A stretch of DNA of 64,000 nucleotides from Candidatus Omnitrophota bacterium (lineage in GTDB: Bacteria > Omnitrophota > Gorgyraeia > Gygaellales > Profunditerraquicolaceae): NCBI GenBank assembly GCA_041650495.1, contig JBAZLB010000008.1, forward strand, positions 4,218 to 68,217. Direction: 5' to 3'. This document shows positions 721 through 17,540 of the stretch, in pieces. The notes beneath the pieces are model-generated. The model was not told where the DNA came from. It searched no databases and saw only the letters and a program-made list of their open reading frames with translations. The position numbers and the translations under genes were made by a program. How positions within the stretch are numbered: position 1 is the stretch's first letter; every line of letters starts with the position of its first letter.

Positions 721-745
721 GAACAGATAAGCTATAGAGGATCAT

Positions 746-3700
746 ATGGAAATGTTATTTTGGGGGATCTTTGCCGGGGTAATAGGGCTGACTTTATACG
801 CCATTTCTATGTCAAAGGGCTCATCCGGCAGGCAGAAAAAGCCGAAGAAAGAATTTATTCCTCTCAAGGACCAGGCTGTTTCTTTTAAGGACCAGAAGAT
901 TCAGGATATGCATAAACAGATGGGTAGTTATCAGGAGGAGTTAAAAAGGATAAAAGCAGAATGCGCCGTCTTACAACAAGAGGCCCAGAGGTCCAAGAAA
1001 GAGGGCGCCTCCTTAAAAGAAGAGCTGGATAAGCGCCAGGAGTGGGTTGCTAAAAGCGATGAGGCCGTAAAGAGAATTAAAGAGCAGAACTTGGATTTCG
1101 AGAGGCGTTTGGCTAATAAAGAAAAAGAGATACAGCAGGAATTCTCTAAGAATGTAGATTTAAGCCGGCAGATAAGCGAATTAAACGACAAACTGCAGGG
1201 TATAGAGAATGAGGGTAAGCAGAAAACCGCGGATATTGAAATACTCAAACACCAGGTAGAGAGGAATTTAAAAGAAATCCAGGAGAAAACAAAAGAAGCA
1301 AATTCTTATGCCAAAGAAATTGCGGATATGAAACGAGAGCATGAGCAGAGCGAATGGGTCCCTAAGAAGGAATTTAATAAGCTCAATGAAGAATACAGTG
1401 AATTAGAGTCAGAATTAGAAGCAAGAGATGAGAAAATAAGGGTACTATTTGAAGAGTTGGCGCAGTTGCGCAGCCAACTTAAGCCTAAAGAAGCAGCGGG
1501 GCCTGAGAAGCCCGGGGAAGAGGCCCATCCCGTTGAGGAAATAAAGCAACCCGGTGATATGCAGCAGTCTCTTCCTGTGGAACCTGATAAGGCTATTGAG
1601 GAGCCAAAACCTATTGAGCAGGAAATCCATCCTGCGGAAATACAAGAGTCCCCTCCTACGGAAGCAGAGAAGCCTGTTTTAGAATCCCTTCCTTTAGAGG
1701 CGGAAACTCCTCCTGCCGATATCCGGCAGCTTCCTGTTGAAGAAAGCAAAGAGCCTGTTGAGGGACCTCATGATTCTCAAATAAAAGCACCTATGGCAGA
1801 AGAAGTCCCTGCTAGCCAGGTTAAAGACGAAGGCCAGATACAGGCCGAAGCGGCGGATAACAAGGTTTCAGAAGAAACAAAAGAACAGCAGGTCTCCGGG
1901 CAGCCGGTTGCCGATATCAACCTGGAAAAATCAAGGAATATCGGCATTATGGCGCATATTGATGCCGGAAAGACTACCACTACCGAAAGGATTCTTTTTT
2001 ATACCGGAAAGTCGCATAAGATAGGCGAGGTCCATGACGGCAAGGCCCAGATGGACTGGATGAAGCAGGAACAGGAAAGGGGCATTACTATTACCTCTGC
2101 GGCAACCACTTGTTATTGGAATGGGTATAAGATCAATATTATTGATACGCCTGGGCATGTGGATTTTACCGCAGAGGTAGAACGCAGCTTAAGGGTGCTC
2201 GATGGCGCAGTGGCTTTATTCTGTGCTGTAGGCGGGGTAGAACCTCAATCTGAAACGGTATGGCGCCAATCCAATAAATACAATGTCCCCAAGCTGGTCT
2301 TTGTTAATAAGATGGACCGTACAGGCGCGGATTTCTTTGCTGTAATAAAAGGCATACAGGAAGACCTGGAGGCAAATGTTATCCCCCTGGAAATCCCCAT
2401 TGGAAGCGAGGATAATTTTCGAGGGGTAATTGATCTTATTGAGATGAAGGCATATGTATACCTGGATGATACACAGGGCAAAGATTATAAGATAGAAGAT
2501 ATACCTGAGGAGCTCAAGAAAACATCCGAGGAATACCATCATATTATGGTTGAAAGGGCAGTAGCCTTTGATGATGAATTAATGAAAAAATACCTGGAAT
2601 CACCGGATTCTATTACAGTGGATGAATTAAAAGCGGTTATCCGCCGCGGTACCATCGCCAATAAAATGGTCCCTGTCTTATGCGGCGCTTCTTTTAAGAA
2701 TAAAGGCGTGCAGAAGCTATTGGATGCAATAATATTATATTTGCCTTCTCCTTTGGACCTTCCGCCTGTTGAGGGAAGCGATCCTGAGGATGCCGAAAAA
2801 ATTATACCCAGGAAAACCGATGCCAGCGAGCCGTTTTGCGGCCTGGCCTTTAAGGTCCAGAGTGACCCGCATATGGGAAAACTGGTGTATGTCAGGGTTT
2901 ATTCCGGAGTATTACAGACCGGGTCCTATGTGCTGAATACGCGTAAAAACAAGAAAGAAAGGATAGGAAGGATCCTGAGGATGCATGCCAACCAGAGGGA
3001 AAATATAGATAATGCCTTTGCCGGAGATATCGTGGCTTTAATAGGCATGAGCCATACTATTACCGGAGATACGCTTTGTGACCCTGAGCACCCGATATTG
3101 CTTGAGGCTATACAGTTTCCTACTCCGGTGGTTTCTTTAAGTGTGGCGCCTAAAAGCAGGGGGGATCAGGATAAGCTCGGCAAAGGTTTAGCCAAATTGG
3201 CAGAGGAGGACCCCACTTTCCTAGTGCAAACAGATGAGGAGACCAAGGAGACTATACTGACCGGGATGGGAGAGTTACACCTGGAAATCATCGTAGACAG
3301 GCTGAAGACGGAATTCGGGGTAGAGGCGATAGTGGGTAAGCCTAAGGTCGCTTATCGGGAGACTATAACGAAGTCGGCAAAGGCAGAAGGTAAATACATA
3401 AAGCAGTCAGGCGGCAGGGGCCAATATGGCCATGTAGTATTTGAGATCTCGCCGGCTGAGGCAGGCAAGGGCCTGGTATTTATAGACAGCATAAAAGGAG
3501 GGGCAATACCACGCTCCTTTATCCCCGCAGCAGAGAAGGGGGTCATTGAAGCAATGCAAAAGGGGGTTTATGCGGGTTATCCTATCGTAGACGTGCAGGT
3601 AGACCTCATAGACGGCTCTTATCATGAAGTTGATTCATCGGAATTGGCCTTTAAGATGGCTGCTATATTAGGTTTTAAAGATGGCTTCATGCAGGCAAAT

Positions 3701-3997
3701 CCCATACTCCTGGAGCCAACCATGTCTTTAGTGGCGATTACTCCCGAGGAATACGTAAACAGCGTTATCGGATATATCTGCTCCTGCCGGGGTAAGATTC
3801 TCAATATGGAGACGAAGGGAAAACAGAAGATAGTTTCTGCGGAAGCGCCTCTGGCTGAGATGTTTGGCTATGCTACAAATTTCCGTTCTTTAAGCAGCGG
3901 CAGGGCAAACGCCTCAATGGAATTCTCCAAATATACCCAGGTGCCTTCGGAGATCGTAGCAAAGGTTCAGGCGGAGAGAAGTCAGAAAGAAAGATAA
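746..3997 (+). CDS. Elongation factor G family translational GTPase with an N-terminal extension of about 390 aa. The extension carries a TM signal-anchor helix, a coiled coil and a Pro/Glu-rich linker.
   Basis: The EF-G part carries the G1 motif '[15 protein letters not shown]', G3 'DTPGHVDF' and G4 'NKMDR', plus domain IV '[10 protein letters not shown]'. Its C-terminus '[18 protein letters not shown]' is that of a complete EF-G spanning about aa 395-1083. The N-terminus reads '[22 protein letters not shown]' (hydrophobic helix), then about 200 aa of heptad-like E/K/Q-rich sequence, then a P/E-rich low-complexity stretch. There is no in-frame stop across the whole ORF and the SD 'AGAGGA' sits 6 nt before the ATG at 746. 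Confidence 0.8.
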
Positions 3998-4027
3998 CGC
4001 CTTATCCCTCAAGGCATCATCCTCGTT

Positions 4028-4315
4028 TTATTTCTTTTCTAATGTGGTAAAACGCCAGCCTAAAGAAAAATAACAGCAGAGTGTTGCCATAATGGTAAGG
4101 CTACCTATCAGGTTCGGCCGGAAATTGAAGTATTTTATCAGTATGATCCCACCGATAAATAACAATATAAAAAAGGAAAGGAACCACGCGTAGAAATCCC
4201 TGTCTTTGACCAGGAGTTTAGAATTGCATTGGGTGCATCTTATAAATGACCATCCGCCGTTACAGAAGAATTCGTAAGGTGAAATATCTTTCCTGCATTT
4301 AGGGCATTTAGCCAT
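4028..4315 (-). CDS. Small zinc-ribbon membrane protein (two CxxC pairs plus two predicted TM helices), hypothetical.
   Basis: The N-terminus 'CPKC...CTQC' is followed by hydrophobic segments 'FLSFFILLFIGGIILI' and 'LIGSLTIMATLCCYF'. It is convergent with the EF-G gene. Confidence 0.4.
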   Translation of the reverse strand: MAKCPKCRKDISPYEFFCNGGWSFIRCTQCNSKLLVKDRDFYAWFLSFFILLFIGGIILIKYFNFRPNLIGSLTIMATLCCYFSLGWRFTTLEKK

Positions 4316-4475
4316 GTATTCTCCTTATTTATGTTTTTTTTAATTGAGTGAAAGCATATCATATTATGGCTATTCCATCAAGAGAAAAATAAATAATTGA
4401 TGTTACTATTTTGAAATGTTAAGTTTTACGGCAGCTTCTTATAAGTAGGGATATACTTAGGCAGTAATATATGGC

Positions 4476-5558
4476 TTATATTTCCAGGAGCCTTGCGGAG
4501 TAGGCATTGAGCAGGTCTTTGTATTTTTTATTGATGCGGCAAGGAGCTAAAATAGCATATGATTTGCGCAACAATCTTTTTATCTCTGCCCGGGCATAAT
4601 CCAGCGCGCCGGAATCATCTACGATCTTACGCATCGCCAACAGGTCTTTTTTCTTGGTATCTTTCTTGGCAAATATTCTTTTTATTATTTTTCTGTCGCC
4701 AAGACAGGCTTTGCGGTAAGCCTGCCAAATCAGTATAGTCTTTTTGCCTTCTTTGAGGTCGGCGAGCATAGGTTTACCCGTTTCTTCTTCGTTGCTAAAC
4801 ATCCCTATGATATCGTCTTTTATCTGGAAGGCCCTGCCCAGGCACATGCCGTAGCGGGAAATCCTGTCTATATCTTCTCTGCCTGCCCCGGCAAGGATTG
4901 CTCCCGTGGCAAGGGGCGAGGCAAAGGTATAATGCGCTGTCTTAAGGTCATAGATTTTAACCAGGTCTTTTTTCTTTATATCTCTGATGTCTTTTGTGCT
5001 GTAAAGCAGGAGTTCAATGAATTCGCCGCTGCCCGTATAAACCGCCGCCCGGATAAAATTCTTCAAGGCCTCTTCTTTACGCTTTGCCTCTGTTTCTATT
5101 GATAAAAACGCTTCTATGGCCATAGCGTACATTACATCTCCGGCAGCGATAGCCAGGTCCTGGCCGTTAAATTTGATATTCTTATATCTTTTTAGGTAGT
5201 TATTAAGCATACGGTGCATCGACGGCTTGCCTCTCCTTAGTTCCGATTTATCTATAATGTCATCGTGGACGAGCATAAAATCATGCAGGAGCTCTAAGGA
5301 GATAGCGCTTTTAAATAAACCCCTGGCCGGATTCTTAGCAAAACCAAGGTATCCTATGATAAAAAGTATGGGCCTGACCCGCTTGCCTTTTCTAAGAATA
5401 AAATCTTTTATATGCAGGAACAGGACAGGGGATAGCCGGCTAAGGGAGTAGCTTTTATTGATATCGCCGACAAACTTGTGCAGTTCCTTATCCAGCTTAT
5501 TTTTGATTTTAGTAAACATAATTTTATGATAACATATAAAGAAGCCAAACACAAACAT
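4476..5558 (-). CDS. Polyprenyl diphosphate synthase (trans-isoprenyl diphosphate synthase family, ispB/hepT-like). The start may instead be the internal Met at 5519.
   Basis: The first aspartate-rich motif is 'LVHDDIIDKSELRRGKPS' and the second is 'FQIKDDIIG'. Confidence 0.8.
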   Translation of the reverse strand: MFVFGFFICYHKIMFTKIKNKLDKELHKFVGDINKSYSLSRLSPVLFLHIKDFILRKGKRVRPILFIIGYLGFAKNPARGLFKSAISLELLHDFMLVHDDIIDKSELRRGKPSMHRMLNNYLKRYKNIKFNGQDLAIAAGDVMYAMAIEAFLSIETEAKRKEEALKNFIRAAVYTGSGEFIELLLYSTKDIRDIKKKDLVKIYDLKTAHYTFASPLATGAILAGAGREDIDRISRYGMCLGRAFQIKDDIIGMFSNEEETGKPMLADLKEGKKTILIWQAYRKACLGDRKIIKRIFAKKDTKKKDLLAMRKIVDDSGALDYARAEIKRLLRKSYAILAPCRINKKYKDLLNAYSARLLEI

Positions 5559-5582
5559 AATAGAACTAAAGCAGGGGCAGTT

Positions 5583-6482
5583 ATGTTGTGTAAGAAAGGT
5601 TATCTTATCAGGGCATTAAGGCTGCCTTTTTTAAGTGTCAGCATCCTGCCTTTCATTTTTGGCTCTTTTCTGTGCGGGGATATTTTCCTTTTGCTGCCTT
5701 TTTTCTTAGGGATAATTTCCGTTATCTCGACACACCTGGCTGCTAACTTGTTGAACGATTACGCGGATTCTAAGAGCGGGGCAGACTGGCAGGACAATAA
5801 TTTCTATAGTTTCTTCGGCGGCTCGAAACTCATACAGGAAGGCGTATTCTCCGAGGGGTTCTATCTTAAGGCATCGCTTATTTTTTTTCTCATCGCTTTT
5901 TTATCGACCGTTTCCCTGGCAGCTGCCTTAGGCGAGCCTTCACTCCTGTTTTATTTCTCCGGCATAATCTTTCTGGGGTGGGCTTATTCTTGTTTGCCTT
6001 TTCGGCTATCCTACCGCCGGCTGGGTGAATTGGTAATCTTCTTGCTTTTTGGCCCGGCACTGGTTATGGGAGGGTATTTTATTCAAAACAAGATATTCCC
6101 GGATTTAAAGAGTTTTTTGCTTTCCCTGCCTTTCGGTTTCTTTACCACCGCCATATTATTTGCCAACGAAATCCCGGATTATCCCGATGATAGGAAAACA
6201 GGCAAGATGAACTGGGTCTCTGTTTTGGGGCCAAAGAATTCCTTTTTGCTGTATATAATCTTATTAGCCTTGGGGTATCTATCAATTATACTGGGGGTTG
6301 TTTTCGGGTACCTGGGTAACTTTGCACTTTTATCGCTGGTATTGGTTTTCCCGGGGATGAAGGCGGCGGGCATCCTCAGGGATCATGCAGGGGGTAAGAT
6401 CAGGTTCAGGGAATCCTCTAAACTTACTATATTGCTGCATACGATGGCGGGCATTATCTTAATCTTAAGCCTTTTTCTATGA
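5583..6482 (+). CDS. menA: UbiA-family prenyltransferase, MenA-like (1,4-dihydroxy-2-naphthoate polyprenyltransferase).
   Basis: The motif 'NLLNDYADSKSGADW' matches the UbiA/MenA NDxxDxxxD signature in a multi-TM protein. The track ORF at 5478 starts on GTG and overlaps the divergent gene, so the ATG at 5583 is preferred. Confidence 0.65.
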   Translation: MLCKKGYLIRALRLPFLSVSILPFIFGSFLCGDIFLLLPFFLGIISVISTHLAANLLNDYADSKSGADWQDNNFYSFFGGSKLIQEGVFSEGFYLKASLIFFLIAFLSTVSLAAALGEPSLLFYFSGIIFLGWAYSCLPFRLSYRRLGELVIFLLFGPALVMGGYFIQNKIFPDLKSFLLSLPFGFFTTAILFANEIPDYPDDRKTGKMNWVSVLGPKNSFLLYIILLALGYLSIILGVVFGYLGNFALLSLVLVFPGMKAAGILRDHAGGKIRFRESSKLTILLHTMAGIILILSLFL

Positions 6483-7609
6483 AAAAGATAATCATTATAG
6501 GCGCAGGTATAGCCGGTATTACTGCCCTGATGACACTGCGCAGGTTCCGCGGCGACTTAGACGTTACGTTAATAGATAGAAATACAGAATCCAGCTTTCT
6601 TCCTCTGCTTCCCGATGTTATCGGCAGGGGGATAAAGCCCTTATACCTTGATTGCGATTTTAGACAAATATGCCGGGAGGCGGGGTTTAAGTTCGTGCAT
6701 TCCGCCGTATCTTCGTTAAATTTAGATAAAAGAGAGGTCATTACCGATTCAGGTATTTTTACCTATGATTATGTTCTTATTGCCAGCGGCAGCGAAACTA
6801 ACTTTTACGGAAATGACCGGATAAAGGAGGCTTCTTTTAAGCTGGATGATAGTAGAGATGCCCGGGTAATATCTGAGGCCTTAGGGCGGGGGAATCTTGC
6901 TTGCTGTTTAGTTGTCGGGGGAGGATATACCGGCATTGAGACAGCTTCTAATCTTTACAGGTATTTTACGCGCAGGCAGGAAAAGATAAAGATATTTATT
7001 GTTGAGCGTGCCTCTTCTATTTTAGGGCCGCTGCCGGAATGGATGAAGGGTTATGTTTTGGCCAGCCTAAAAAATATGGGAATTGAGGTATTGACCGGGG
7101 CTACTATAGTAAAATTAGAGAAAGCAAGCGTATATCTTAGCAACGGCAGTATCTTTAGAAACGCTATGGTTATCTGGGCTGCGGGGGTAAAAACCTCCGG
7201 CTATCTTGACAGCTTAAAGGCGGAAAAGGGCCCCCAGGGCCGGATATTAGTGGATGAATACCTAAGGCTGGATCTCAGCTGTTTTGCCGCAGGGGATGCC
7301 GCTCTTTTTAAGTATAAAGACGGGTATCTGCGTATGGCTGTGCAGTTTGCTATTGCCCAGGGGTCCTCTGCCGCCTTAAACATTGTAAGAAGCATCCGTG
7401 GCAGGAGGATCATAAAATATAAGCCCAGGGATTTAGGGTATATCATTCCTATGGCCAATAACAGGGCTTGCGGCATAATTATGGGCATCGGAGTAAATGG
7501 GCGTTTTCCCCTTATATTACATTATGCTATGTGCCTTTACCGCTTGCGGGGCCTTTATAATAAATGGGGGGTCTTTAAGGACCTTATTTCAGGAGGTGTG
7601 CTATGTTGA
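6479..7609 (+). CDS. FAD/NAD(P)-binding pyridine-nucleotide-disulfide-family oxidoreductase, type II NADH:quinone oxidoreductase-like.
   Basis: Two Rossmann motifs are present, 'IIGAGIAGITA' and 'VVGGGYTGIE', and 'CFAAGDAA' resembles the NDH-2 signature. Its ATG overlaps the stop of the menA-like gene, consistent with translational coupling. Confidence 0.6.
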   Translation: MKKIIIIGAGIAGITALMTLRRFRGDLDVTLIDRNTESSFLPLLPDVIGRGIKPLYLDCDFRQICREAGFKFVHSAVSSLNLDKREVITDSGIFTYDYVLIASGSETNFYGNDRIKEASFKLDDSRDARVISEALGRGNLACCLVVGGGYTGIETASNLYRYFTRRQEKIKIFIVERASSILGPLPEWMKGYVLASLKNMGIEVLTGATIVKLEKASVYLSNGSIFRNAMVIWAAGVKTSGYLDSLKAEKGPQGRILVDEYLRLDLSCFAAGDAALFKYKDGYLRMAVQFAIAQGSSAALNIVRSIRGRRIIKYKPRDLGYIIPMANNRACGIIMGIGVNGRFPLILHYAMCLYRLRGLYNKWGVFKDLISGGVLC

Positions 7610-7998
7610 ATACTGGGCTTCTGGTTTTAAGGTTAGGGTTGGGGGCGATATTTATGGCCCACGGATTACAGAAAGCATTCGGAGTGTTTACCGGGACAGG
7701 CATAAGCGGTTTTTCCAAGATGCTTTCAGGGCTAGGCTTTTATCCTCCGGTGTTTTGGGCATATATCGCTGCTTATGTTGAATTATTAAGCGGTCTGTTT
7801 TTAATCTTTGGCATACTTACGCGCGTCTCCGCCTTTTTCCTGCTTGTACTTATGCTGGTAGCTACAATCAAGGTCCATCTTGCCAAGGGGTTCTTTTTGG
7901 CTAACGGAGGTTTTGAATATAACCTGCTTATTGCCTGCGCCTGCCTTGCCCTTTTGCTGATGGGCGGGGGTCAATTCAGCCTTTTTAAGAGTTTTTAA
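7603..7998 (+). CDS. DoxX-family membrane protein.
   Basis: The sequence 'LLVLRLGLGAIFMAHGLQKAFGVF' is a typical DoxX N-terminus, four TM segments are predicted, and the RBS is 'AGGAGGTG'. Confidence 0.7.
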   Translation: MLNTGLLVLRLGLGAIFMAHGLQKAFGVFTGTGISGFSKMLSGLGFYPPVFWAYIAAYVELLSGLFLIFGILTRVSAFFLLVLMLVATIKVHLAKGFFLANGGFEYNLLIACACLALLLMGGGQFSLFKSF

Positions 7999-10703
7999 TC
8001 CAGGGTAACCCGGATAAGGTTGTCTTTGGCGTTGGTGACAGAAAGGAGGTAACTGCGGGAGATGTGAAAGTTCTCTTTATGGATACCTTCGGCAACGGTT
8101 TTTCCGTTTATGGACACCTTGCATATCCGATACCTGCCGAAATCTTTTCTTCGGGGGTTGAAAAATTCTACCTTGATGGGCCTTTGGGCAAAAGATGCGG
8201 TTGTGGATAACCGATTACTGCTGTTTAATTGTTCAGCGGTGAGTTTAGGTTCGATTATCAAATCCCCGTATTCCCCCCTGATGCCGAATACCTGGGTAAG
8301 CAAGGTAAGCATAAACCAACTGGCGGAACCGGTCAGATAGCTATACATACCCTGTCCTTCGGCGTTGAAATATTCCGGCAGGCAGGGGTAGATCCTGCTT
8401 TTTTGCGTATCCAGCGCCATGCGGTATATAGACTTTATTACTGCGTATCCTTCTTTGACAAATCCTCTCAGGTAAAGGGCGTAGGCGAACATCACGCACA
8501 TATGATTAAAGAACGCGCCGTTTTCTTTGTTCCCGTAGGCGAAAGAAAATGCCCGGCCGAGGTTTAGCTGTTCTGCTTTAAAATCGGTATTCAGACGGAA
8601 GCCGCCTGTTTTCTTATCTTTCAGGTATTTTTGCGTGTTTAAAAATATGGTTTTAATCTGTTCAGTGGTTGCGATACCGCTCATGACAGGAAAGACTTGT
8701 CCTGCGAGGGTCATGCGCATTAAACCTCCGGTAGCGCCTTCAATCCGTTCCCCGTCATTATTATAATATCCGTTGAAAAATCCTTCCTTGAGCCATTCGG
8801 ATTTGCGTATATGCCCATACATCCAGTCTGCCTTTTCTTTGAGGGAAGAAATTAATTCTTCTTTAGGCAGGCTTATTCTTTTTTCAGTTACCCCATCTTC
8901 GGTTTCTCCCAGATACCTGTCTAATATTTCGCGTTTTAATTTTACATCCGAATAATTTGTATTTTCTCTGGTGGCAGAATTAAGAAGCGTAGTTAATTCC
9001 CGGAAGATGGGTATCTTTTCTGTATTAAGGCGCTCAAGCAGTCCGCAGATTGCTTTTAGGTTTTGCGCATACATTGCGCTGAAGGCAACGCTCTCTCCGC
9101 GCTGGGGAGCCATATCTAACCCGTCGTTCCAGTCTGAGCCTTCCAGGCGTATATGGTTATGGGGACCGACGTTAAAAAATTGCACCAGGTTTTCCACCAG
9201 TATATGCTCAAGCAGGCTTCCTTTATAAATCTTTCCTGACTTGGTTTGCAGGAAATTTCCTTCCTGCGGTTGCCATCGCGTATCTTTTTTCAGGCCCCTG
9301 TGCATCTGATAGTCGCGGAAGTAGGTGGTTTCTTCAAAGAGTATATCTATGTCGGAAGTCTGGTGAATATAAAACTGTATAGTGATTAACGGCCAGATGC
9401 CGTGGTCCATCCATACGCGGCTGATGTTGTTGCGGTCGGCGATAAATTCGCCTGTATTATTGCCGATAATGGTAGCATGGGAGCCGTCTATGCGCACGCC
9501 GGCAAGATTATTTACCAAAAGTGTCTTTACTTCTTTGGGGTTGTCCAATATAAGAGAAAGGCAGTCTTGCCATAGGTCGCGCCAGCCTCTGCCACCTTTG
9601 CCGTAGTCGAAGTCCGGAAGAAAAGAGCAGCCGAATATTCTTCTTAGAGCCGGCTGGATATTCACCCAGCGTATCCAGTTATCAAAAAGGGGATCATTCG
9701 TCTCAGCGGCAATCCGGGTGCTTTTTTCCTGCCAGTATCCCTGTGTATTTTTTAGGGAATCCCGGATTTTGGTTTCGGTATTAAAATTCTTTAGGATGGG
9801 GTTTATTTCTGATTTATCTTTTACAATACCCATGAGGATGATATAAGCGGTATTTTGTTTTTTCTTAAGCCGGATACTTTTAAATCTTAGCCCGGCCATA
9901 GCCTCTTTACCGTGGTTGTTTTTCTTCTTGGCAGGCGGATATCCGCGGAATATAGATTCCGGCGCTTCCAGGTCTGAGGCCTCGCCGGTAAATTGCTCCT
10001 GTGTCGGGTATATATATTGGGGTGAGCCGTTTTTTGTATCTATGCCTAAAACGAAATAAGAGGTAGTGTCTTTCTTGTGTCCTGCTTCGTCAAATAGCAA
10101 TGCGGGGGAGGTGATAACGCCGAATTTATTTTTATCTATGCGCTGCAGAAGCGAAGTTACCTGGCGGTGGTCATGCAGGTTATGAGCGGACCTGCCGAAG
10201 ATGGGGATAGCAGCTGTAGGGGTAAAATTAATAGTTTTAGAAGATACATTGGTAATACGTACAAACATTATTTCTACCGGCTCTCCTGAGGCCGGGACAA
10301 AAGAGGTAATTTCTGCCTTAAGGCCGATATTGCTGTTTTGACGGGTTAGCTTATGCCAGAGTAGTCCTGCCTGGAGATTAAATCTGTCTTTTTTAAGTTG
10401 CCTGGCATTTTTTGATACGCCCGTTGCCGACCATATTTTTTCAGGGGTCCTTTTTTGATTGCCGGTGTGCGTGTCTATCCAGAAATTACGGCTGGCCCTG
10501 GAATTGACAAGAGATTGGCGGGAAACAGGCTCTAATAAAAACGCATGAAAACCCGTTTTTATGTCTCCGTGTAAGTCAGGGGAAAGCGAGGACATCAGGG
10601 GATAAGAATTACAGATGGGGAAATAGAGCGTTTTTATCTTATCGGCTGTATCCGAGGAAAATGTGCCTTCTTTATCTATGAACTGCCAGAGCTTCTTTGC
10701 CAT
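7995..10703 (-). CDS. Large glycoside hydrolase/phosphorylase-like protein with an (alpha/alpha)6 barrel. It is GH94-like (cellobiose/chitobiose phosphorylase or cyclic glucan synthase family).
   Basis: The ORF is about 900 aa. 'EGSDWNDGLDM' resembles the GH94 catalytic Asp motif. The track ORF starts on TTG at 10775, so the ATG at 10703 ('MAKKLWQF') is preferred. Confidence 0.45.
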   Translation of the reverse strand: MAKKLWQFIDKEGTFSSDTADKIKTLYFPICNSYPLMSSLSPDLHGDIKTGFHAFLLEPVSRQSLVNSRASRNFWIDTHTGNQKRTPEKIWSATGVSKNARQLKKDRFNLQAGLLWHKLTRQNSNIGLKAEITSFVPASGEPVEIMFVRITNVSSKTINFTPTAAIPIFGRSAHNLHDHRQVTSLLQRIDKNKFGVITSPALLFDEAGHKKDTTSYFVLGIDTKNGSPQYIYPTQEQFTGEASDLEAPESIFRGYPPAKKKNNHGKEAMAGLRFKSIRLKKKQNTAYIILMGIVKDKSEINPILKNFNTETKIRDSLKNTQGYWQEKSTRIAAETNDPLFDNWIRWVNIQPALRRIFGCSFLPDFDYGKGGRGWRDLWQDCLSLILDNPKEVKTLLVNNLAGVRIDGSHATIIGNNTGEFIADRNNISRVWMDHGIWPLITIQFYIHQTSDIDILFEETTYFRDYQMHRGLKKDTRWQPQEGNFLQTKSGKIYKGSLLEHILVENLVQFFNVGPHNHIRLEGSDWNDGLDMAPQRGESVAFSAMYAQNLKAICGLLERLNTEKIPIFRELTTLLNSATRENTNYSDVKLKREILDRYLGETEDGVTEKRISLPKEELISSLKEKADWMYGHIRKSEWLKEGFFNGYYNNDGERIEGATGGLMRMTLAGQVFPVMSGIATTEQIKTIFLNTQKYLKDKKTGGFRLNTDFKAEQLNLGRAFSFAYGNKENGAFFNHMCVMFAYALYLRGFVKEGYAVIKSIYRMALDTQKSRIYPCLPEYFNAEGQGMYSYLTGSASWFMLTLLTQVFGIRGEYGDLIIEPKLTAEQLNSSNRLSTTASFAQRPIKVEFFNPRRKDFGRYRICKVSINGKTVAEGIHKENFHISRSYLLSVTNAKDNLIRVTLD

Positions 10704-11108
10704 GTTGACTGTCAATTTATCACAGCAAGTTTCTTTTTGCAATATCTTTCTCTCTTTTCTAATACCGTTTACCAATCCAAATATAATCTGTGGTAATCTT
10801 TCTCAAGAGCACAAGGGACAAGGTGATGGACGGAAACCGTCCCCTTTATTATGCGGGTCTGTCCCCGGCTGGGATTTACTTAGTTTTTTTGGGACTTTGC
10901 CCTCCGTAAGTTATGCGCTCATTAAGCTGTTTTTGTTGAAAAATCCTTAATAAGTGATAAAATATGAAGGCGTATCCGGAATGGGAAGATAAGGGCCCGC
11001 CTTAAGATTGAGCCGGGAAACAAGAAATGTCTGCCGCAGAGCATTTTTGTTATCTGCAGTATAAAATCTTTTTGAAATAATGAGTCCGATGAATAACAGG
11101 ATGGGTAT

Positions 11109-12137
11109 ATGCGCGTAGGCATGTATTATAACAATAATGATGTCCGGGTTGAGAAATTGCCCAGGCCTGCCGTGGGCAAGGGAGAAATCATTGTGCGCGT
11201 AGAGTCCGCGGGCATATGCGGCAGCGATGTAATGGAGTGGTATCGTATTAACCGCACGCCTTTGGTATTGGGCCATGAAATATCGGGTATTATTGAGGAG
11301 GTTGGCGAGGGGGTTGGAGATTTTCATCCGGGACAGAGGGTGGCTTGTGCACACCATGTCCCCTGCATGAGTTGCCGTTATTGCCTTGGGGGGCATGAAA
11401 CCGTCTGCGATACCTTGCGTCAAACTAACTTTTACCCCGGAGGATTCGCGGAATTTATCCGCCTTTCTACTATTAATGTAGAGAAGGGCGTCTATCTTCT
11501 GCCCGATTCCGTTTCTTTCGATGAAGCAACATTCGTAGAACCCCTGGCCTGCGTATTGCGCGGCCAGAGGCTTGCAGGTATAAAACCGGGGACGAATGTT
11601 TTGGTTTTAGGTAGCGGCATCGCCGGTCTAATGCATATTCAACTGGCAAAGATAAATAAGGCCGCTCGCGTGATTGCTACGGATTTATCGGATTACCGCT
11701 TATTGGCGGCAAAAAGGTTCGGGGCAGATATAGTAATAAATGCCAGGGAGTATTCGCTGGATTTGCTCAGGAGATTGAATGAAGGTCGCCTCGCGGACTT
11801 GGTCATAGTCTCAACCGGGGCAGTCCCCGCAATCTATCAGGCCATTGATTCTTTAGACAGGGGAGGGACGATCCTGTTTTTTGCTCCGGCAGAAAAAGGC
11901 GCTAAAATAATTTTTCCTTTCAATGAATTGTTCTGGCGTACGGAAAACAAGCTGGTCAGTTCTTATGCGGGCAGTCCTGCCGATTATCGGCAGGCCCTGG
12001 GCTTGATAGCCGGCGGGGAATTTAAAGTTAAGGATATGATAACCCATTGTTTCAAGTTAGAAGAGATCAAAAAGGGTTTCTATTTGGTTACGAAAGGCGC
12101 GAATTCAATTAAAATCATAATCCATCCGCAGGAATAG
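11109..12137 (+). CDS. Zinc-dependent medium-chain dehydrogenase/reductase (threonine/sorbitol dehydrogenase-like).
   Basis: The catalytic zinc motifs 'GICGSDVMEW' and 'GHEISGIIEEVGEGV' are present, the structural zinc site is 'CMSCRYCLGG', and the Rossmann motif is 'VLGSGIAGL'. Confidence 0.8.
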   Translation: MRVGMYYNNNDVRVEKLPRPAVGKGEIIVRVESAGICGSDVMEWYRINRTPLVLGHEISGIIEEVGEGVGDFHPGQRVACAHHVPCMSCRYCLGGHETVCDTLRQTNFYPGGFAEFIRLSTINVEKGVYLLPDSVSFDEATFVEPLACVLRGQRLAGIKPGTNVLVLGSGIAGLMHIQLAKINKAARVIATDLSDYRLLAAKRFGADIVINAREYSLDLLRRLNEGRLADLVIVSTGAVPAIYQAIDSLDRGGTILFFAPAEKGAKIIFPFNELFWRTENKLVSSYAGSPADYRQALGLIAGGEFKVKDMITHCFKLEEIKKGFYLVTKGANSIKIIIHPQE

Positions 12138-12957: not shown

Positions 12958-14136
12958 ATGAAAAAGGCGGGGGTCTTAACCATTGTTTTTGTCTTTATTG
13001 CTTTCTGCTATGGTTTCAGTTATGGCCAGGAAGGCGAAAGCCCTGTGCAGGGACTTAAGGTTTTTTATTCCCAGAGCTGCCATAAATGCTTGAATATAAA
13101 CCATAAAATAATTCCGGCAATAGAAAGTGAATTTAAGGGCAGAATAACGGTTGACTACCTTGATATCTCGGATATCCAGAATTATAAGTTACTCCTTAGC
13201 CTTAAGGAGAAATACGGCATAAAACATGATACTCCCGTGCCGGTTTTGTATCTGCAGGGGCATTTTTTAAGCGGCGACATAAATAAGGAGGGCCTGAGAC
13301 AGTTTATTCTAAACGCCCTTAAGGGGCATGCGGATAGAAACGAAACTAAGGTTGCGCCGATAGACCCGGTAGCAAAATTCAGGAATATTGAAGCCATGGC
13401 TGTAGTCAGCGCAGGGCTGGTGGACGGGATAAATCCGTGCGCGTTTACGGTGATAGTATTTTTCGTTTCTTTCCTTGCCTTGCAGGGATACAGAAAGAGA
13501 GAGCTCCTTTTGATAGGGCTGTTGTTTATATTTGCGGTATTCTTGACATATATCCTTATCGGGGTAGGTATATTTGGGTTTCTTTACCGCTTGCGCTCTT
13601 TCTGGATGGTTTCGCGCGTAGTAAATATATCTGTAGGCGTCTTAAGTATAGCCTTAGGGTTTGCTGCACTCTACGATTATTTTAAATTCAAGAAAGACAA
13701 AAGCCCCGAAGGGTTGATTTTAAAGCTGCCTCAGGCGATAAAAAACAGGATACATACCTTAATCGGCAGCCATTACCGCAAGGGCCATAAAAATGAGGCA
13801 GGCAGAGAGAGGAAGGGCATCTTCGGGCTTATGATAGCCAGCCTTACAACAGGGTTTCTTGTTTCTTTGCTGGAATCGGTATGCACAGGGCAGGTGTATT
13901 TGCCGACGATAGTCTTTGTTTTAAAGGCCACCCCTTTAAAGATACAGGCCTTAGGCTATCTCTTGCTTTATAATCTCATGTTTATCGCACCCCTGGTTAT
14001 AATCTTTATCCTGGCCATGTTAGGAGTAACATCGCTTGAATTCTCAAGGCTCCTAAAAAGGCACCTTTCTAAGGTAAAGATAGCTATGGCATTTCTGTTT
14101 TTCGGCTTAGGGGTATTCTTATTATGGAAGACATGA
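12958..14136 (+). CDS. Fusion of a periplasmic thioredoxin/glutaredoxin-fold domain (CxxC) with a DsbD/CcdA-like transmembrane thiol-disulfide transporter domain.
   Basis: There is a signal peptide, and 'SCHKC' sits in an N-terminal domain of about 130 aa. The membrane domain carries the conserved Cys motifs 'GINPCAF' and 'SVCTGQ'. Confidence 0.5.
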   Translation: MKKAGVLTIVFVFIAFCYGFSYGQEGESPVQGLKVFYSQSCHKCLNINHKIIPAIESEFKGRITVDYLDISDIQNYKLLLSLKEKYGIKHDTPVPVLYLQGHFLSGDINKEGLRQFILNALKGHADRNETKVAPIDPVAKFRNIEAMAVVSAGLVDGINPCAFTVIVFFVSFLALQGYRKRELLLIGLLFIFAVFLTYILIGVGIFGFLYRLRSFWMVSRVVNISVGVLSIALGFAALYDYFKFKKDKSPEGLILKLPQAIKNRIHTLIGSHYRKGHKNEAGRERKGIFGLMIASLTTGFLVSLLESVCTGQVYLPTIVFVLKATPLKIQALGYLLLYNLMFIAPLVIIFILAMLGVTSLEFSRLLKRHLSKVKIAMAFLFFGLGVFLLWKT

Positions 14137-14528
14137 AGAAGCCTTTTTGTTGCATCTTTTTATTTTTTTTCCTGTTAACAGGCTGCCAGGCGCAAAATCC
14201 ATATCTGGATAAAACAAAGGAAGAAGCGGAGATATATTACTGGGACTTCGGGAAAGTAAAGACCGGGGTTATCCTGTCGCATGATTTCATCGTCAGGAAC
14301 AACTCGCAACACGTAATGCACATCAAGGAGATTACTACTTCCTGCGGTTGTGCTGTTCCTGAAATAGCCAAGAAGGTCCTTTCGCCAGGCGAAAGTACAT
14401 CTATGGCGGTGAATTTTAATACCGCAGGATATACCGGCGAGAGTAAACAGTACGTCTATGTGAACACCGACAGCCCGGATAATCCGATTTTACGTTTTAC
14501 AATCAGGGCAGAGATGTCGAAGGACTAA
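14133..14528 (+). CDS. DUF1573-family lipoprotein.
   Basis: The lipobox is 'LLTGC'. 'TSCGCAVPE' is the CGC motif typical of DUF1573. Its start overlaps the upstream gene. Confidence 0.6.
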   Translation: MKKPFCCIFLFFFLLTGCQAQNPYLDKTKEEAEIYYWDFGKVKTGVILSHDFIVRNNSQHVMHIKEITTSCGCAVPEIAKKVLSPGESTSMAVNFNTAGYTGESKQYVYVNTDSPDNPILRFTIRAEMSKD

Positions 14529-14544
14529 GGGCTAAGGGGACGTT

Positions 14545-14768
14545 CCCCGCGATTAGAACTCATTGTCAGAATTAAGTTTATGAGCGTGGCTTTATTTGTG
14601 TTCTTAGGGGCAAGTTTATCCCTCGCGTAAGCACTTGAAATTTCCTGGCGCAAGCGCCAGAAAATTTCTACGTACGCTTCAGGATAATTCGCAGACGCCC
14701 CTTTACAGGGGCTACAACTTACGTCGGAGATGGATAAAATAATCGCTCCGTAAGTTGTCTGCTCATTA
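14545..14768 (+). repeat. Structured intergenic repeat, copy A1. It is the longer, more diverged member of the five-copy dispersed family.
   Basis: It shares the 'CTTCAGGATAATTCGCAGACG' block and the hairpins 'GCCCCTTTACAGGGGC' and 'ACAACTTACGTCGGAG..CTCCGTAAGTTGT'. It has a 'CTGCTCATTA' end and an additional hairpin 'GAAATTTCCTGGCGCAAGCGCCAGAAAATTTC'. Confidence 0.7.
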
Positions 14769-14770
14769 AA

Positions 14771-14957
14771 TATACCCCGTTAGCTAAGCGCTGCGTGGAT
14801 CGTGTATCCCTTGCCTAAACGCTCGAAAATTACTTTCGCTATGCTCAGTAATTTTCTTCGCAGGCTTCGGGATAATTCGCAGACGCCCCTTTACAGGGGC
14901 TACAACTTACGTCGGAGATGGATAAAATAATCGCTCCGTAAGTTGTCTGCTCATTAC
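14771..14957 (+). repeat. Structured intergenic repeat, copy A2, lying in tandem with A1. It is the archetype of about 187 nt and ends 18 nt before the htpX ATG.
   Basis: Its last roughly 100 nt are identical to A1. It has three hairpins: 'GAAAATTACT..AGTAATTTTC', 'GCCCCTTTACAGGGGC' and 'ACAACTTACG..CGTAAGTTGT'. Confidence 0.8.
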
Positions 14958-14975
14958 ATTAAAGGAGGTAGAAGG

Positions 14976-15938
14976 ATGTTTTTTTTAAAACTGAGGATGT
15001 GGCTTTTGTTGGGGGCACTTTTTGGGATTATCTATGCCATAATGGTTATGGTCGGTTCTTACCTGGGGATTACGAATTTTTATTTCTACCTATTTTTATC
15101 TCTGGCCATGATTCTTGTCCAGTATCTTATCGGGCCTAAAATGGTAGAGTGGACCATGCGTGTCAGGTATGTGAGTAAACAGCAATACCCTCAACTGTTT
15201 AGCATGGTAGAAGAATTATCCGCTAAGGCAGGAATCCCTATGCCTAAAATAGGCATATCCGCTATTCAGTTGCCGAATGCCTTTGCTTTTGGCCGCACAC
15301 TTAAGGACGGACGGGTATGCGTTACCGAAGGGATACTGCGGTTATTAAACGAAGAAGAGCTAAGGGCGGTTTTGGGGCATGAGTTAAGCCATTTGAAGAA
15401 CCGGGATGTCCTGACTATAACCCTGCTTTCGGTCATACCCATGATTCTTTACCGCTTAGCCTGGCAGTTCTTATTTTACGGCCGCCGCAGGGATTCAGAA
15501 AGGGGAAATAATACCGCAATTATCGGCTTGCTGGCTTTTGTCTTCTATTTTATCACCAACCTGCTGGTCCTTTATGCCTCCCGGATACGGGAATATTTTG
15601 CCGATCGCGGCTCTGTACAGCTGGGGAATCATCCCTCCAGCCTTGCCTCCAGTTTATACAAACTGAGCCAGGCGTCAGCGCGGGTAACACCTGAGTCGTT
15701 AAAAGAGGTAGAGGGGGTAAAGGCGTTTTTTGTCAATAACCCTTCGCAGGCCCTGAATGAAATCAGGGAATTAAGGCAAATCGACCTGGATAAGAACGGC
15801 GTAATCGGAGCCTCGGAGTTGGAACGTCTAAAAAAAGGCAGGATAAAACTTAACTTAGGAGAAAGGTTGTTGGAACTTCTCAGCACTCATCCTAATATGC
15901 TTAAGCGCCTGATGCAGCTTTCCCAGTATCAAGACTGA
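14976..15938 (+). CDS. htpX: HtpX-type M48 zinc metalloprotease with a C-terminal EF-hand-like insertion.
   Basis: The active site is 'HELSHLKNRD' (HExxH), N-terminal TM helices are predicted, and the RBS is 'AAAGGAGGT'. The track ORF starts on TTG at 14943, inside the repeat. Confidence 0.8.
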   Translation: MFFLKLRMWLLLGALFGIIYAIMVMVGSYLGITNFYFYLFLSLAMILVQYLIGPKMVEWTMRVRYVSKQQYPQLFSMVEELSAKAGIPMPKIGISAIQLPNAFAFGRTLKDGRVCVTEGILRLLNEEELRAVLGHELSHLKNRDVLTITLLSVIPMILYRLAWQFLFYGRRRDSERGNNTAIIGLLAFVFYFITNLLVLYASRIREYFADRGSVQLGNHPSSLASSLYKLSQASARVTPESLKEVEGVKAFFVNNPSQALNEIRELRQIDLDKNGVIGASELERLKKGRIKLNLGERLLELLSTHPNMLKRLMQLSQYQD

Positions 15939-16059
15939 TAAAATCCCGCTTTCCTTGTTTAGTCTTTAATCTTATCTAGAGGATAGCCATTCTTTATATT
16001 TAAGTGTCTGTAAAAGCCAATTTATGCTCGCTTTCAGGCAGGATACAGGGCTGATTTTA

Positions 16060-16088
16060 TTGACAGGCGTCAAATTATACTATATAAT
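16060..16088 (+). promoter_or_regulatory. Consensus sigma70-type promoter of lysS (TTGACA-N17-TATAAT).
   Basis: The -35 'TTGACA' lies at 16060-16065 and the -10 'TATAAT' at 16083-16088, with an exact 17-nt spacer. The ATG at 16098 leaves a leader of only about 3 nt and no SD. Confidence 0.5.
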
Positions 16089-16097
16089 CATAAATCT

Positions 16098-17540
16098 ATG
16101 GAACTAAACGAGATTATCGCACAGAGAAGGGCGAAATTAGACGCCTTGAAAGCCAAGGGCATCCTTGTTTATCCCAAGGCCCTGGCCGGCCGTAAGGATA
16201 TAGGGCCTGCATTAAAGGACTTTCGGGAGGGGGAACGCTTTGTTTTTGCCGGCAGGATTATGGCCAGGCGTATGCACGGTAAGGTCGTCTTTATGGATTT
16301 ACGCGATGCCACCGGTAAGGTCCAGCTTTATATCAAAGAGGATATTGTCGGCAAGGATTATTTTTCCTTAATGGATAGCCTTGATATAGCTGATATTATT
16401 ACTGCGGAGGGCGAGCTTTTTAAGACGCATACAGGTGAGCCTTCGGTAAAAGTGGAAAAGATCACCCTTCTTTCTAAGGCGCTTCGGCCTTTGCCTGAGA
16501 AGTGGCACGGCCTTAAGGATGTAGAATTGCGTTACCGGCAGCGTTATCTGGATTTGCTGGCCAACGAAGAAGTCAGGCAGGTGTTTTTAGCGCGCTCCCG
16601 GGTTATCCGGGCAATCAGGAGTTTTCTTGAAGAAAGAGGGTTTCAGGAGGTGGAAACCCCGATGATGCATGACATTGCCGGAGGCGCCAGCGGCAGGCCT
16701 TTTTGCACCCATCATAATGAATATGATATGGGCCTGTATTTAAGGATTGCCCCCGAGCTTTATCTGAAACGCCTGCTCGTCGGCGGAATGGACAAGGTCT
16801 ATGAGATAAACCGCAGTTTCCGCAATGAAGGCGTATCCACCCGGCATAACCCGGAATTTACCATGCTGGAGGTGTACTCGGCTTATGCCGATTTTAAGGA
16901 TATGATGGAGTTGTGCCAGGATTTAATTATCTCGGTAAGCAGGGTAGTCAAGGGCGGGATGAACTTTTCTTATCAGGGCAAAGAAATAAACCTCAAGGCC
17001 CCCTGGCAGGTCTCTTCTTTTTCCGGTATGGTCAAGGAAAAGTTTGGCATTGAGCCGCAGGATGAGGTTGAAACAATGCTTAAGAAACTGCAGCATAAAG
17101 GTTACGCCCTGGATAAAAAAAGGCTAAGCCGCTCCCAGGTAAATAAGATCATAGAGGATGTGCTTGAGCAGGGTATGCAAATGGACCCGGTTTTTGTGGC
17201 TGATTATTTTACCAGCCTTTGCCCTTTGGCTAAAACCAGTCCTGATAATCCTTTGATCTCCGAACGTTTTGAACTGTATGTGGCAGGCCTGGAAGTAGGC
17301 AATGCCTACTCCGAGTTAAACGACCCCGCAGAACAGAGGCAGCGTTTTCAGGAGGAGATCAAGGAGCTGGATGCCGATGAAAAGAAGGCAGTCGATGAAG
17401 ATTATGTCCAGGCCCTGGAGCACGGGATGCCTCCGGCCGGGGGATTGGGTATAGGGATAGACAGGCTGGTGATGCTGCTTACAGACCAGCCTTCAATAAG
17501 GGATGTAATTCTTTTTCCGCTGCTTAGGCCGCAGAAATAA
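16098..17540 (+). CDS. lysS: Lysyl-tRNA synthetase (class II).
   Basis: A full-length class IIb aaRS, with the N-terminal OB fold and motifs 1-3 ('FRNEG', 'GGLGIGIDRLVMLL'). Confidence 0.95.
   Translation: MELNEIIAQRRAKLDALKAKGILVYPKALAGRKDIGPALKDFREGERFVFAGRIMARRMHGKVVFMDLRDATGKVQLYIKEDIVGKDYFSLMDSLDIADIITAEGELFKTHTGEPSVKVEKITLLSKALRPLPEKWHGLKDVELRYRQRYLDLLANEEVRQVFLARSRVIRAIRSFLEERGFQEVETPMMHDIAGGASGRPFCTHHNEYDMGLYLRIAPELYLKRLLVGGMDKVYEINRSFRNEGVSTRHNPEFTMLEVYSAYADFKDMMELCQDLIISVSRVVKGGMNFSYQGKEINLKAPWQVSSFSGMVKEKFGIEPQDEVETMLKKLQHKGYALDKKRLSRSQVNKIIEDVLEQGMQMDPVFVADYFTSLCPLAKTSPDNPLISERFELYVAGLEVGNAYSELNDPAEQRQRFQEEIKELDADEKKAVDEDYVQALEHGMPPAGGLGIGIDRLVMLLTDQPSIRDVILFPLLRPQK

Follow-up and report, generated by a model that had tools for sequence, protein, structure and literature searches.

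The window analysed here, a stretch of 64,000 nt from contig JBAZLB010000008.1 of a Candidatus Omnitrophota bacterium, carries near its 5' end a gene for elongation factor G (EF-G) in which the EF-G is preceded by a long N-terminal extension that begins with a predicted transmembrane (TM) helix (Table 1). The gene is a single open reading frame (ORF) of 3252 nt that starts with ATG, contains no internal stop codon and is preceded by a Shine-Dalgarno-like (SD) sequence. By our own estimate, about 390 stop-free codons ahead of an EF-G would arise by chance with a probability of ~0.95^390, i.e., ~2e-9, and the GC content is flat (0.43-0.48) over the extension, the junction and the EF-G parts. No ATG, GTG or TTG is present 6-30 codons ahead of the G1 motif of the window gene. 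We use the name long EF-G for proteins of this kind, which combine a TM helix, a motif-bearing coiled coil, an acidic linker and an EF-G core belonging to a distinct long clade; the window protein has all of these features. Judged from homologue searches and genome scans, the long EF-G is a family conserved phylum-wide in the nanobacterial phylum Omnitrophota. A preliminary description of this DNA had already proposed one uninterrupted frame, an SD sequence before the ATG at 746, a full five-domain EF-G from G1 onwards and the lack of a start codon at the canonical EF-G position, and each of these points was borne out by the present analysis.

The EF-G part of the protein was assigned with the equivalog model TIGR00484, which scored 1045.4 bits against a cutoff of 659.4 and aligned aa 391-1078 with model positions 5-689 of 691. 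The five domains of EF-G (PF00009, PF22042/PF03144, PF14492, PF03764, and PF00679) were all found above cutoff. The core is an EF-G sensu TIGR00484 and neither an EF-G2 nor a Tet(M)-type protein, because the EF-G2/EFG II models (NF009377, 503.7 vs 890; NF058620, 482.9 vs 1000) and the Tet(M)/Tet(O)-type ribosomal protection model (NF012153, 388.4 vs 775) all scored below their cutoffs. The GTPase motifs G1-G5 and the loop tips of domain IV, including GSYHEVDSS, are intact, and the family shows no variation in G1, G3, G4 or either domain IV loop. The EF-G part of the long EF-G is therefore apparently active, as far as its motifs indicate.

Table 1. Features of the long EF-G gene, in window coordinates (pLDDT, predicted local distance difference test; AF2, AlphaFold2).
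Feature	Position	Strand	Basis or remark
Shine-Dalgarno-like AGAGGA	736..741	+	4 nt 5' of ATG; read from sequence
Whole gene, long (membrane-tethered) EF-G, 1083 aa + stop	746..3997	+	ORF list; ~120 full-length homologous clusters
N-terminal TM helix, aa 2-22, predicted N-out/C-in	749..811	+	Kyte-Doolittle maximum; AF2 helix; family charge pattern
Basic juxtamembrane segment, aa 23-42, disordered	812..871	+	pLDDT <50; K/R cluster
Coiled-coil helix 1, aa 43-203, ~24 nm if straight	872..1354	+	AF2 single helix, pLDDT 93-98 (module model); heptad periodicity
Motif RQEWVAKS with invariant W100	1034..1057	+	family conservation
Signature motif with invariant W204 and L213; helix break W204-V-P206	1349..1420	+	>=90% conserved; AF2; kept in stand-alone proteins
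Coiled-coil helix 2, aa 207-250	1364..1495	+	AF2; heptad register
Acidic Pro/Glu-rich disordered spacer, aa 251-390	1496..1915	+	composition E20/P15; pLDDT 30-40
ATC codon (Ile391), start used by the 693-aa GenBank call	1916..1918	+	window reads D-I-N-L-E-K vs MNLEK in P0001
EF-G core, aa 391-1083	1916..3994	+	Pfam, NCBIfam; AF2 pLDDT ~85-95
EF-G domain G	1928-2749	+	Pfam/NCBIfam
EF-G domain II	2831-3082	+	Pfam/NCBIfam
EF-G domain III	3116-3340	+	Pfam/NCBIfam
EF-G domain IV	3341-3700	+	Pfam/NCBIfam
EF-G domain V	3707-3961	+	Pfam/NCBIfam
G1 AHIDAGKTT	1952-1978	+	motif read
G3 DTPGH	2144-2158	+	motif read
G4 NKMD	2306-2317	+	motif read
Domain IV tip SGGRGQYGH	3407-3433	+	motif read

The extension opens with the putative TM helix, for which the best 19-residue Kyte-Doolittle window begins at aa 3-4 with a value of 1.86; the helix starts at residues 1-8 in 115 of the 121 family members. 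Net positive charge is absent before this helix, and four to six K/R follow within the 20 residues after it, so that the positive-inside rule predicts an N-out/C-in topology with the EF-G part placed in the cytoplasm. A periplasmic orientation of the TolA/TonB type was rejected on the same distribution of charges, and because EF-G needs GTP and ribosomes. Residues 26-250 are rich in Glu, Lys and Gln (E17/K16/Q9), while residues 251-390 are rich in Glu, Pro and Ala (E20/P15/A10) and are predicted to be disordered. AF2 was run on two alignments (81 full-length sequences and 29 sequences of the module, i.e., the TM/coiled-coil part), and both models concur on a helix at 2-22, disorder at 23-42, a helix at 43-203, a break at 204-206, a second helix at 207-250, disorder to ~392 and a folded EF-G. 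Over residues 43-239 of the family alignment, hydrophobic positions recur with a period of 3.5 residues (z = 23; equalled by 0 of 2000 shuffles), and one heptad register is kept for ~16 heptads.

Hydropathy, composition, periodicity and the AF2 models agree with the signal-anchor-like helix, the heptad K/E/Q region and the P/E-rich linker noted in the preliminary description. The long coiled coil which it had named stands as far as the heptads are concerned, but it is not merely generic, because W100, W204 and L213 are invariant across the long EF-G family and the motifs R-x-EWV-x-KS, KEKELQEEF-x-KNV, IEI-x-KHQ-I/V-E, and one beginning SEWVPK are conserved at >=90%; the same conserved module is also found without EF-G (see below). 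The spacer is 44-156 aa long in family members and acidic in every one of them (net charge, median -12); it contains 15% Pro and few hydrophobic residues, and is poorly conserved. The first 390 residues gave nothing but sub-threshold coiled-coil noise against Pfam and NCBIfam, and the module had no family match in Pfam, PDB sequences or PDB folds (Foldseek). A PDB sequence profile of the module returned only marginal matches to the Sec2 coiled coil (E ~1e-3), which were judged generic.

With the full protein as query, ~120 clusters of 985-1172 aa were recovered at ~100% query cover and ~60% identity, and their named members are all Candidatus Omnitrophota or Omnitrophica. The extension is kept in these orthologues: 250-490 residues (median 339) stand before G1 in 119 of the 119 non-self top clusters. 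One genome of each GTDB species was scanned with patterns designed on a 6-sequence subset of the 29-sequence alignment, and the extension was found in at least 103 species genomes, almost all labelled Omnitrophota; this number is a lower bound because the patterns are strict. The 80 genome loci comprise 56 fused forms, 22 stand-alone modules and two loci cut by contig ends. Wherever both parts are visible the fusion is in frame (61/61 loci). Three of these 61 have an ATG at the boundary and four a start codon with an SD sequence, and no start codon is conserved there. A frameshift or assembly artefact is ruled out by this family-wide conservation of the frame together with the uniform GC content.

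Three further observations were made among these loci. In one lineage (L008:6001-9037; the same sequence in L009), a +1 frame change within A8/A7 runs of the linker ('gcaaaaaaaagaggcgaagaaaaaaatt') leaves the module and the EF-G as separate ORFs of 314 and 711 aa. The change is identical in three independent assemblies; a true indel, a site of slippage and an error common to the assemblies are all conceivable. The metagenome-assembled genome JAZDPH01 (isolate MEGAHIT-group-0.826) contains two fused loci, L028 and L072, whose modules are only 46% identical; either this genome has two long paralogues, or the bin is mixed. Some module-bearing genomes are labelled 'uncultured Planctomycetales bacterium', and one 'Candidatus Margulisiibacteriota' (among L011, L016, L022, L029, L047, L052, L054, L056, L060, L078, L089, and L057); such labels are probably coarse or wrong, and are unlikely to reflect a real presence outside Omnitrophota.

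The long EF-G is accompanied in the phylum by a free-standing short EF-G of ~698 aa. On contig L003, a 697-aa EF-G (2600-4693) lies 5 kb upstream of a long form of 1172 aa; the two proteins share 75% identity over their cores, and each scores above the TIGR00484 cutoff. A search with this short protein returned ~115 clusters of 689-704 aa, many of them named Omnitrophota. When 242 cores were placed in a neighbour-joining tree with E. coli EF-G as the root, all 118 short forms fell into one clade and all 122 long forms into the other, and the two were reciprocally monophyletic sister clades. The window core grouped within the long clade, where the sole 'short' sequence was P0001, a trimmed database call of the window gene itself. 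Core identity is 76% among long forms, 77% among short forms and 69% between them, and identity to E. coli EF-G is 56% for the long and 59% for the short form. Eight sites discriminate the two clades at >=90% in each, five of them in domain V or the C-terminal tail, and no clade-specific indel separates the long and short cores. The short form retains the E. coli residue at six of the eight sites, which makes the long form the derived copy. Column conservation is equal (0.83 in the long vs 0.84 in the short clade), which indicates that the long form is under the same constraint as the short one.

The short gene precedes the long gene on the same strand in four contigs, namely L003, L004 (a complete 1.52-Mb chromosome, with the short form at 10001-12097 and the long form at 13692-16847), L101 (where the intervening genes are those of L004), and L121 (where both are directly tandem with a 140-nt gap). 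This co-occurrence on a shared strand suggests that the pair originated by tandem duplication. Linkage is the exception, since no short EF-G was found within 10 kb of any of the 80 loci with a long form or a module. At the 56 fused loci, and at 46 long loci from metagenomes, the short copy lies elsewhere, so its absence from the 64-kb window says little.

The typical position of fusA is in the str operon (rpsL-rpsG-fusA-tuf), although this is not a defining criterion, and the window gene does not occupy it: the 64-kb window encodes neither S7, S12 nor EF-Tu, and no further EF-G. The preliminary description had likewise placed the locus outside that operon, with no rpsL, rpsG or tuf nearby. The short clade was found in a str operon in none of the eight sampled contexts (L003:2600-4693, L004:10001-12097, and L090-L099 among them), and no S7, S12 or EF-Tu was found near the short form in 24 further metagenome loci (among L100-L179) with flanks of <=4 kb. 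The 2.2 Mb of related loci contained none of the three genes, nor did the viral contigs, and a divergent third EF-G was not found in the fetched related DNA. A 2026 preprint on complete Omnitrophota genomes reported S12-S7-EF-G-EF-Tu-S10 operons on several chromosomes (10.64898/2026.06.07.730766). Because the short clade lies outside the str operon in the sampled contexts, the operonic fusA, if general, may belong to a third EF-G lineage in Omnitrophota. On the evidence of the tree and of gene order, the long EF-G is a paralogue with a free-standing short sister and not the canonical str-operon fusA.

The N-terminal module also occurs on its own. At 22 of the 80 genome loci, a protein of 236-412 aa with TM helix, coiled coil and acidic tail ends at its own stop codon, and no EF-G lies within 10 kb of these loci (L050-L052, L054, L058-L060, L062, L066, L069, L076, L077, L080, L081, L084, and L085 among them; e.g., L059:9998-10891). 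Fused and stand-alone forms share the slot pheS-pheT-rarA-(module)-...-DUF5981-NifU; rarA is upstream in 44 of 61 fused and 12 of 22 stand-alone loci, and its stop codon often overlaps the start codon of the module. A cyclophilin and a UvrD-type helicase occupy the place of EF-G in the stand-alone loci. The window gene itself lies outside the rarA slot. In a weak tree, the stand-alone copies form several groups nested among the fused ones, suggesting secondary loss of EF-G.

Distant relatives of the module were sought with an exhaustive HMMER search, which replaced a word-indexed profile search that had yielded four matches, was saturated by coiled-coil words and missed known fusions. At E <= 1e-10, it returned 231 cluster representatives, including stand-alone forms, a distant TM/coiled-coil family of ~230 aa and MshEN-PilZ proteins of 600-720 aa. 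Taken together, these alignments indicate that the TM/coiled-coil module is an autonomous conserved family with invariant Trp motifs, which exists also without EF-G. Members of the distant ~230-aa family (P0342, P0355, P0362, and P0372) carry the Trp motifs 'EKEWLxK' and 'QWVAKxEYExL' and lack an acidic tail. The larger proteins P0329, P0366, and P0375 begin with a TM helix, continue with two or three repeats that resemble the module's first half and end in MshEN and PilZ domains, and the same type of stalk seems to tether a module related to cyclic di-GMP in them.

The overall explanation that we favour, with confidence somewhat above even, is that the long EF-G is an active EF-G paralogue which is tethered, retained and organised at the cell envelope. 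According to the tree and synteny, a free-standing fusA of the EFG-I type would have been duplicated once, with some lineages retaining both copies in tandem, and one copy would have been joined N-terminally to the pre-existing autonomous membrane-anchored coiled-coil module. As read or predicted from the sequence, the protein has one TM helix of N-out/C-in topology, followed by a short basic segment, a heptad stalk of ~24-30 nm, an acidic Pro-rich spacer of 45-155 aa and an intact EF-G. The stalk would probably oligomerise and the invariant Trp motifs bind a conserved partner, while the tethered EF-G may perform translocation and/or recycling on ribosomes close to the membrane. The preliminary description had spoken of a permanently tethered paralogue; the paralogy is supported by the short sister clade and the four shared contigs, and the fusion is conserved, but 'permanently' says more than the evidence supports, as the linker may be cleaved.

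Helix 1 is estimated at ~24 nm and helix 2 at 6.5 nm. For the spacer of 140 aa, the contour length would be ~53 nm and the expected end-to-end distance ~9 nm, which gives a usual reach of ~33-39 nm. Omnitrophota cells are ~0.2 um across (PMC10066038), and the leash was computed to cover ~70-85% of the cytoplasm in a cell of that size. The tether thus probably organises or retains the factor or ribosomes at the envelope, and would not exclude it from bulk translation.

Several points weigh against an active, envelope-organised EF-G. The leash would extend through most of a cell 0.2 um across, which makes strictly 'local translation' less plausible, and every step past the anatomy is inferred. 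The 22 of 80 genomes with a module minus EF-G, together with one split lineage, indicate that covalent fusion is not indispensable. The AF2 model is that of a monomer and is silent on oligomeric state and partner. The internal branches of the neighbour-joining tree are short (0.013 and 0.021), with no bootstrap and a single outgroup, and str-operon EF-G genes are reported for Omnitrophota in the 2026 preprint.

More tentatively, and as a possibility to which we give less than even weight, the membrane stalk might be a platform for cytoplasmic machines in general. The EF-G fusion would then couple elongation or recycling, and hence ribosomes, to the envelope, the Trp motifs would bind a partner, and the stand-alone form might recruit in trans.

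It is rather unlikely, though not without arguments in its favour, that EF-G is mainly a ribosome-binding handle in this protein, by which idle or hibernating ribosomes dock at the membrane in the manner of the membrane-bound E. coli proteins YqjD, ElaB and YgaM, and not a working translocase. The substitutions specific to the long form are concentrated in domain V and the C-terminus, which in EF-G face the 50S subunit, and the soluble sister EF-G is at hand for bulk translation. Membrane-bound ribosome-associated proteins do exist (PMC10502375), and free-living cells of V. archaeovorus were described with low ribosome content and a switchable lifestyle (PMC10066038). However, a passive handle is expected to relax, whereas the catalytic His of DTPGH, the P-loop and the tip of domain IV are invariant in the long EF-G and its constraint equals that of the short clade.

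The tether could also be a form of storage, from which regulated proteolysis in the acidic linker would free a soluble EF-G; membrane storage has been reported for LepA/EF4, the analogue of such a reservoir. We regard this as improbable. The linker is long, disordered and poorly conserved and would be accessible to proteases, and the module and EF-G are separate ORFs in one lineage. On the other hand, no conserved cleavage motif was seen in the linker of the family alignment, a soluble paralogue is already present, and the in-frame fusion is kept in all 61 loci.

Still more doubtful is the view that the long form is the only EF-G of the genome from which the window derives and performs all translocation there. 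It would fit the fully canonical core and the lack of a second EF-G within the 64-kb window, but both clades are broadly kept in the phylum, the long and short forms co-occur wherever linkage is visible, including in a complete genome, and the short copy lies elsewhere at the 56 fused and 46 long metagenome loci.

The extension is hidden by annotation in at least two GenBank records. The only database entry with 100% identity to the window protein is P0001, the call of the window gene by GenBank and the Prokaryotic Genome Annotation Pipeline (PGAP), which has 693 instead of 1083 aa and starts with 'MNLEK'. The orthologue in CP070797.1 (L004:13692-16847) is annotated with 797 aa, while its open frame with the TM helix has 1051 aa, and 1 kb of upstream sequence bears no annotation. 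Gene calls of JGI, ENA and Logan give full-length long EF-G proteins. That the true product is an EF-G of ~693 aa from near Ile391, with the upstream 390 codons untranslated or forming a separate gene, is close to refuted despite these two GenBank calls, as it requires an ATC start, no canonical start exists at the boundary in the window or is conserved there in the family, no stop codon separates the two parts, the upstream frame is under selection at the amino-acid level (invariant W100, W204, and L213), and the JGI, ENA and Logan calls are full-length. Start selection guided by homology trims the extension in these GenBank records, which makes the architecture invisible in standard annotation and points to a systematic blind spot.

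Compared with canonical EF-G (EFG I, TIGR00484, E. coli fusA), the long EF-G shares the five domains, the GTPase motifs and the domain IV tip; it differs by the 390-aa TM/coiled-coil/acidic-linker extension, by its location outside the str operon and by the eight substitutions that mark its clade, most of which lie in domain V and at the C-terminus. EF-G2/EFG II, the spirochaete spdEFG1/2 and the mitochondrial mtEF-G1/2 are likewise duplicated EF-Gs kept beside another copy, suggesting a division of labour, and these known pairs are functionally split. Those paralogues are soluble with diverged cores, whereas the core of the long EF-G is still EFG-I-like and its innovation is the membrane tether. 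ZipA of E. coli and RNase Y of B. subtilis are likewise anchored by an N-terminal TM helix (N-out/C-in), which leads through a charged or coiled-coil stretch, and in ZipA also a long, flexible Pro-rich linker, to a globular cytoplasmic domain kept close to the membrane. The long EF-G resembles them in architecture only, as its extension has no Pfam match to either and its cargo is a translational GTPase. YqjD, ElaB and YgaM also tie the translation machinery to the inner membrane, but they are small, anchored by a C-terminal tail and free of a GTPase, and no DUF883-type match was found in the long EF-G. The stand-alone module proteins of Omnitrophota (e.g., P0244, L059:9998-10891) have the same motifs and the same pheS-pheT-rarA slot and end after the acidic tail.

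No membrane-anchored EF-G was described in the literature searched, in line with the earlier remark that no EF-G family of this architecture was known. A survey of translational GTPases never mentions membrane, transmembrane or coiled coil (PMC4342817), the main paper on Omnitrophota never mentions EF-G (PMC10066038), and the 2026 preprint mentions EF-G only as operon or cargo content (10.64898/2026.06.07.730766). The novelty is the joining of EF-G to an undescribed membrane-stalk module, EF-G itself being of a known kind. If it does couple translation to the envelope as tentatively suggested above, the long EF-G would be the first integral membrane protein among translational GTPases, and would point to spatially organised translation in cells of ~0.2 um. 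Such a protein, kept under purifying selection phylum-wide beside a soluble sister, would surprise the translation field, and it would offer a direct handle on how ultra-small, possibly host-dependent bacteria arrange protein synthesis relative to the envelope. The analysis also exposes a widespread, uncharacterised membrane-anchored coiled-coil module that stands alone or is fused to EF-G, with related repeats on MshEN-PilZ proteins.

The neighbours of the window gene are isoprenoid/quinone and carbohydrate genes. A scan for promoters and terminators gave counts at or below the shuffled expectation. Directly 3' of the gene, at 4476-7998, there is a small cluster of the isoprenoid/quinone type, which consists of a polyprenyl synthetase (-), a UbiA prenyltransferase, an NDH-2-like pyridine-nucleotide oxidoreductase and a DoxX protein. 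The mechanically called ORFs of the polyprenyl synthetase (4476-5558, -) and UbiA (5478-6482, +) overlap by 81 nt at their 5' ends, suggesting that one of the two listed starts is probably too far upstream.

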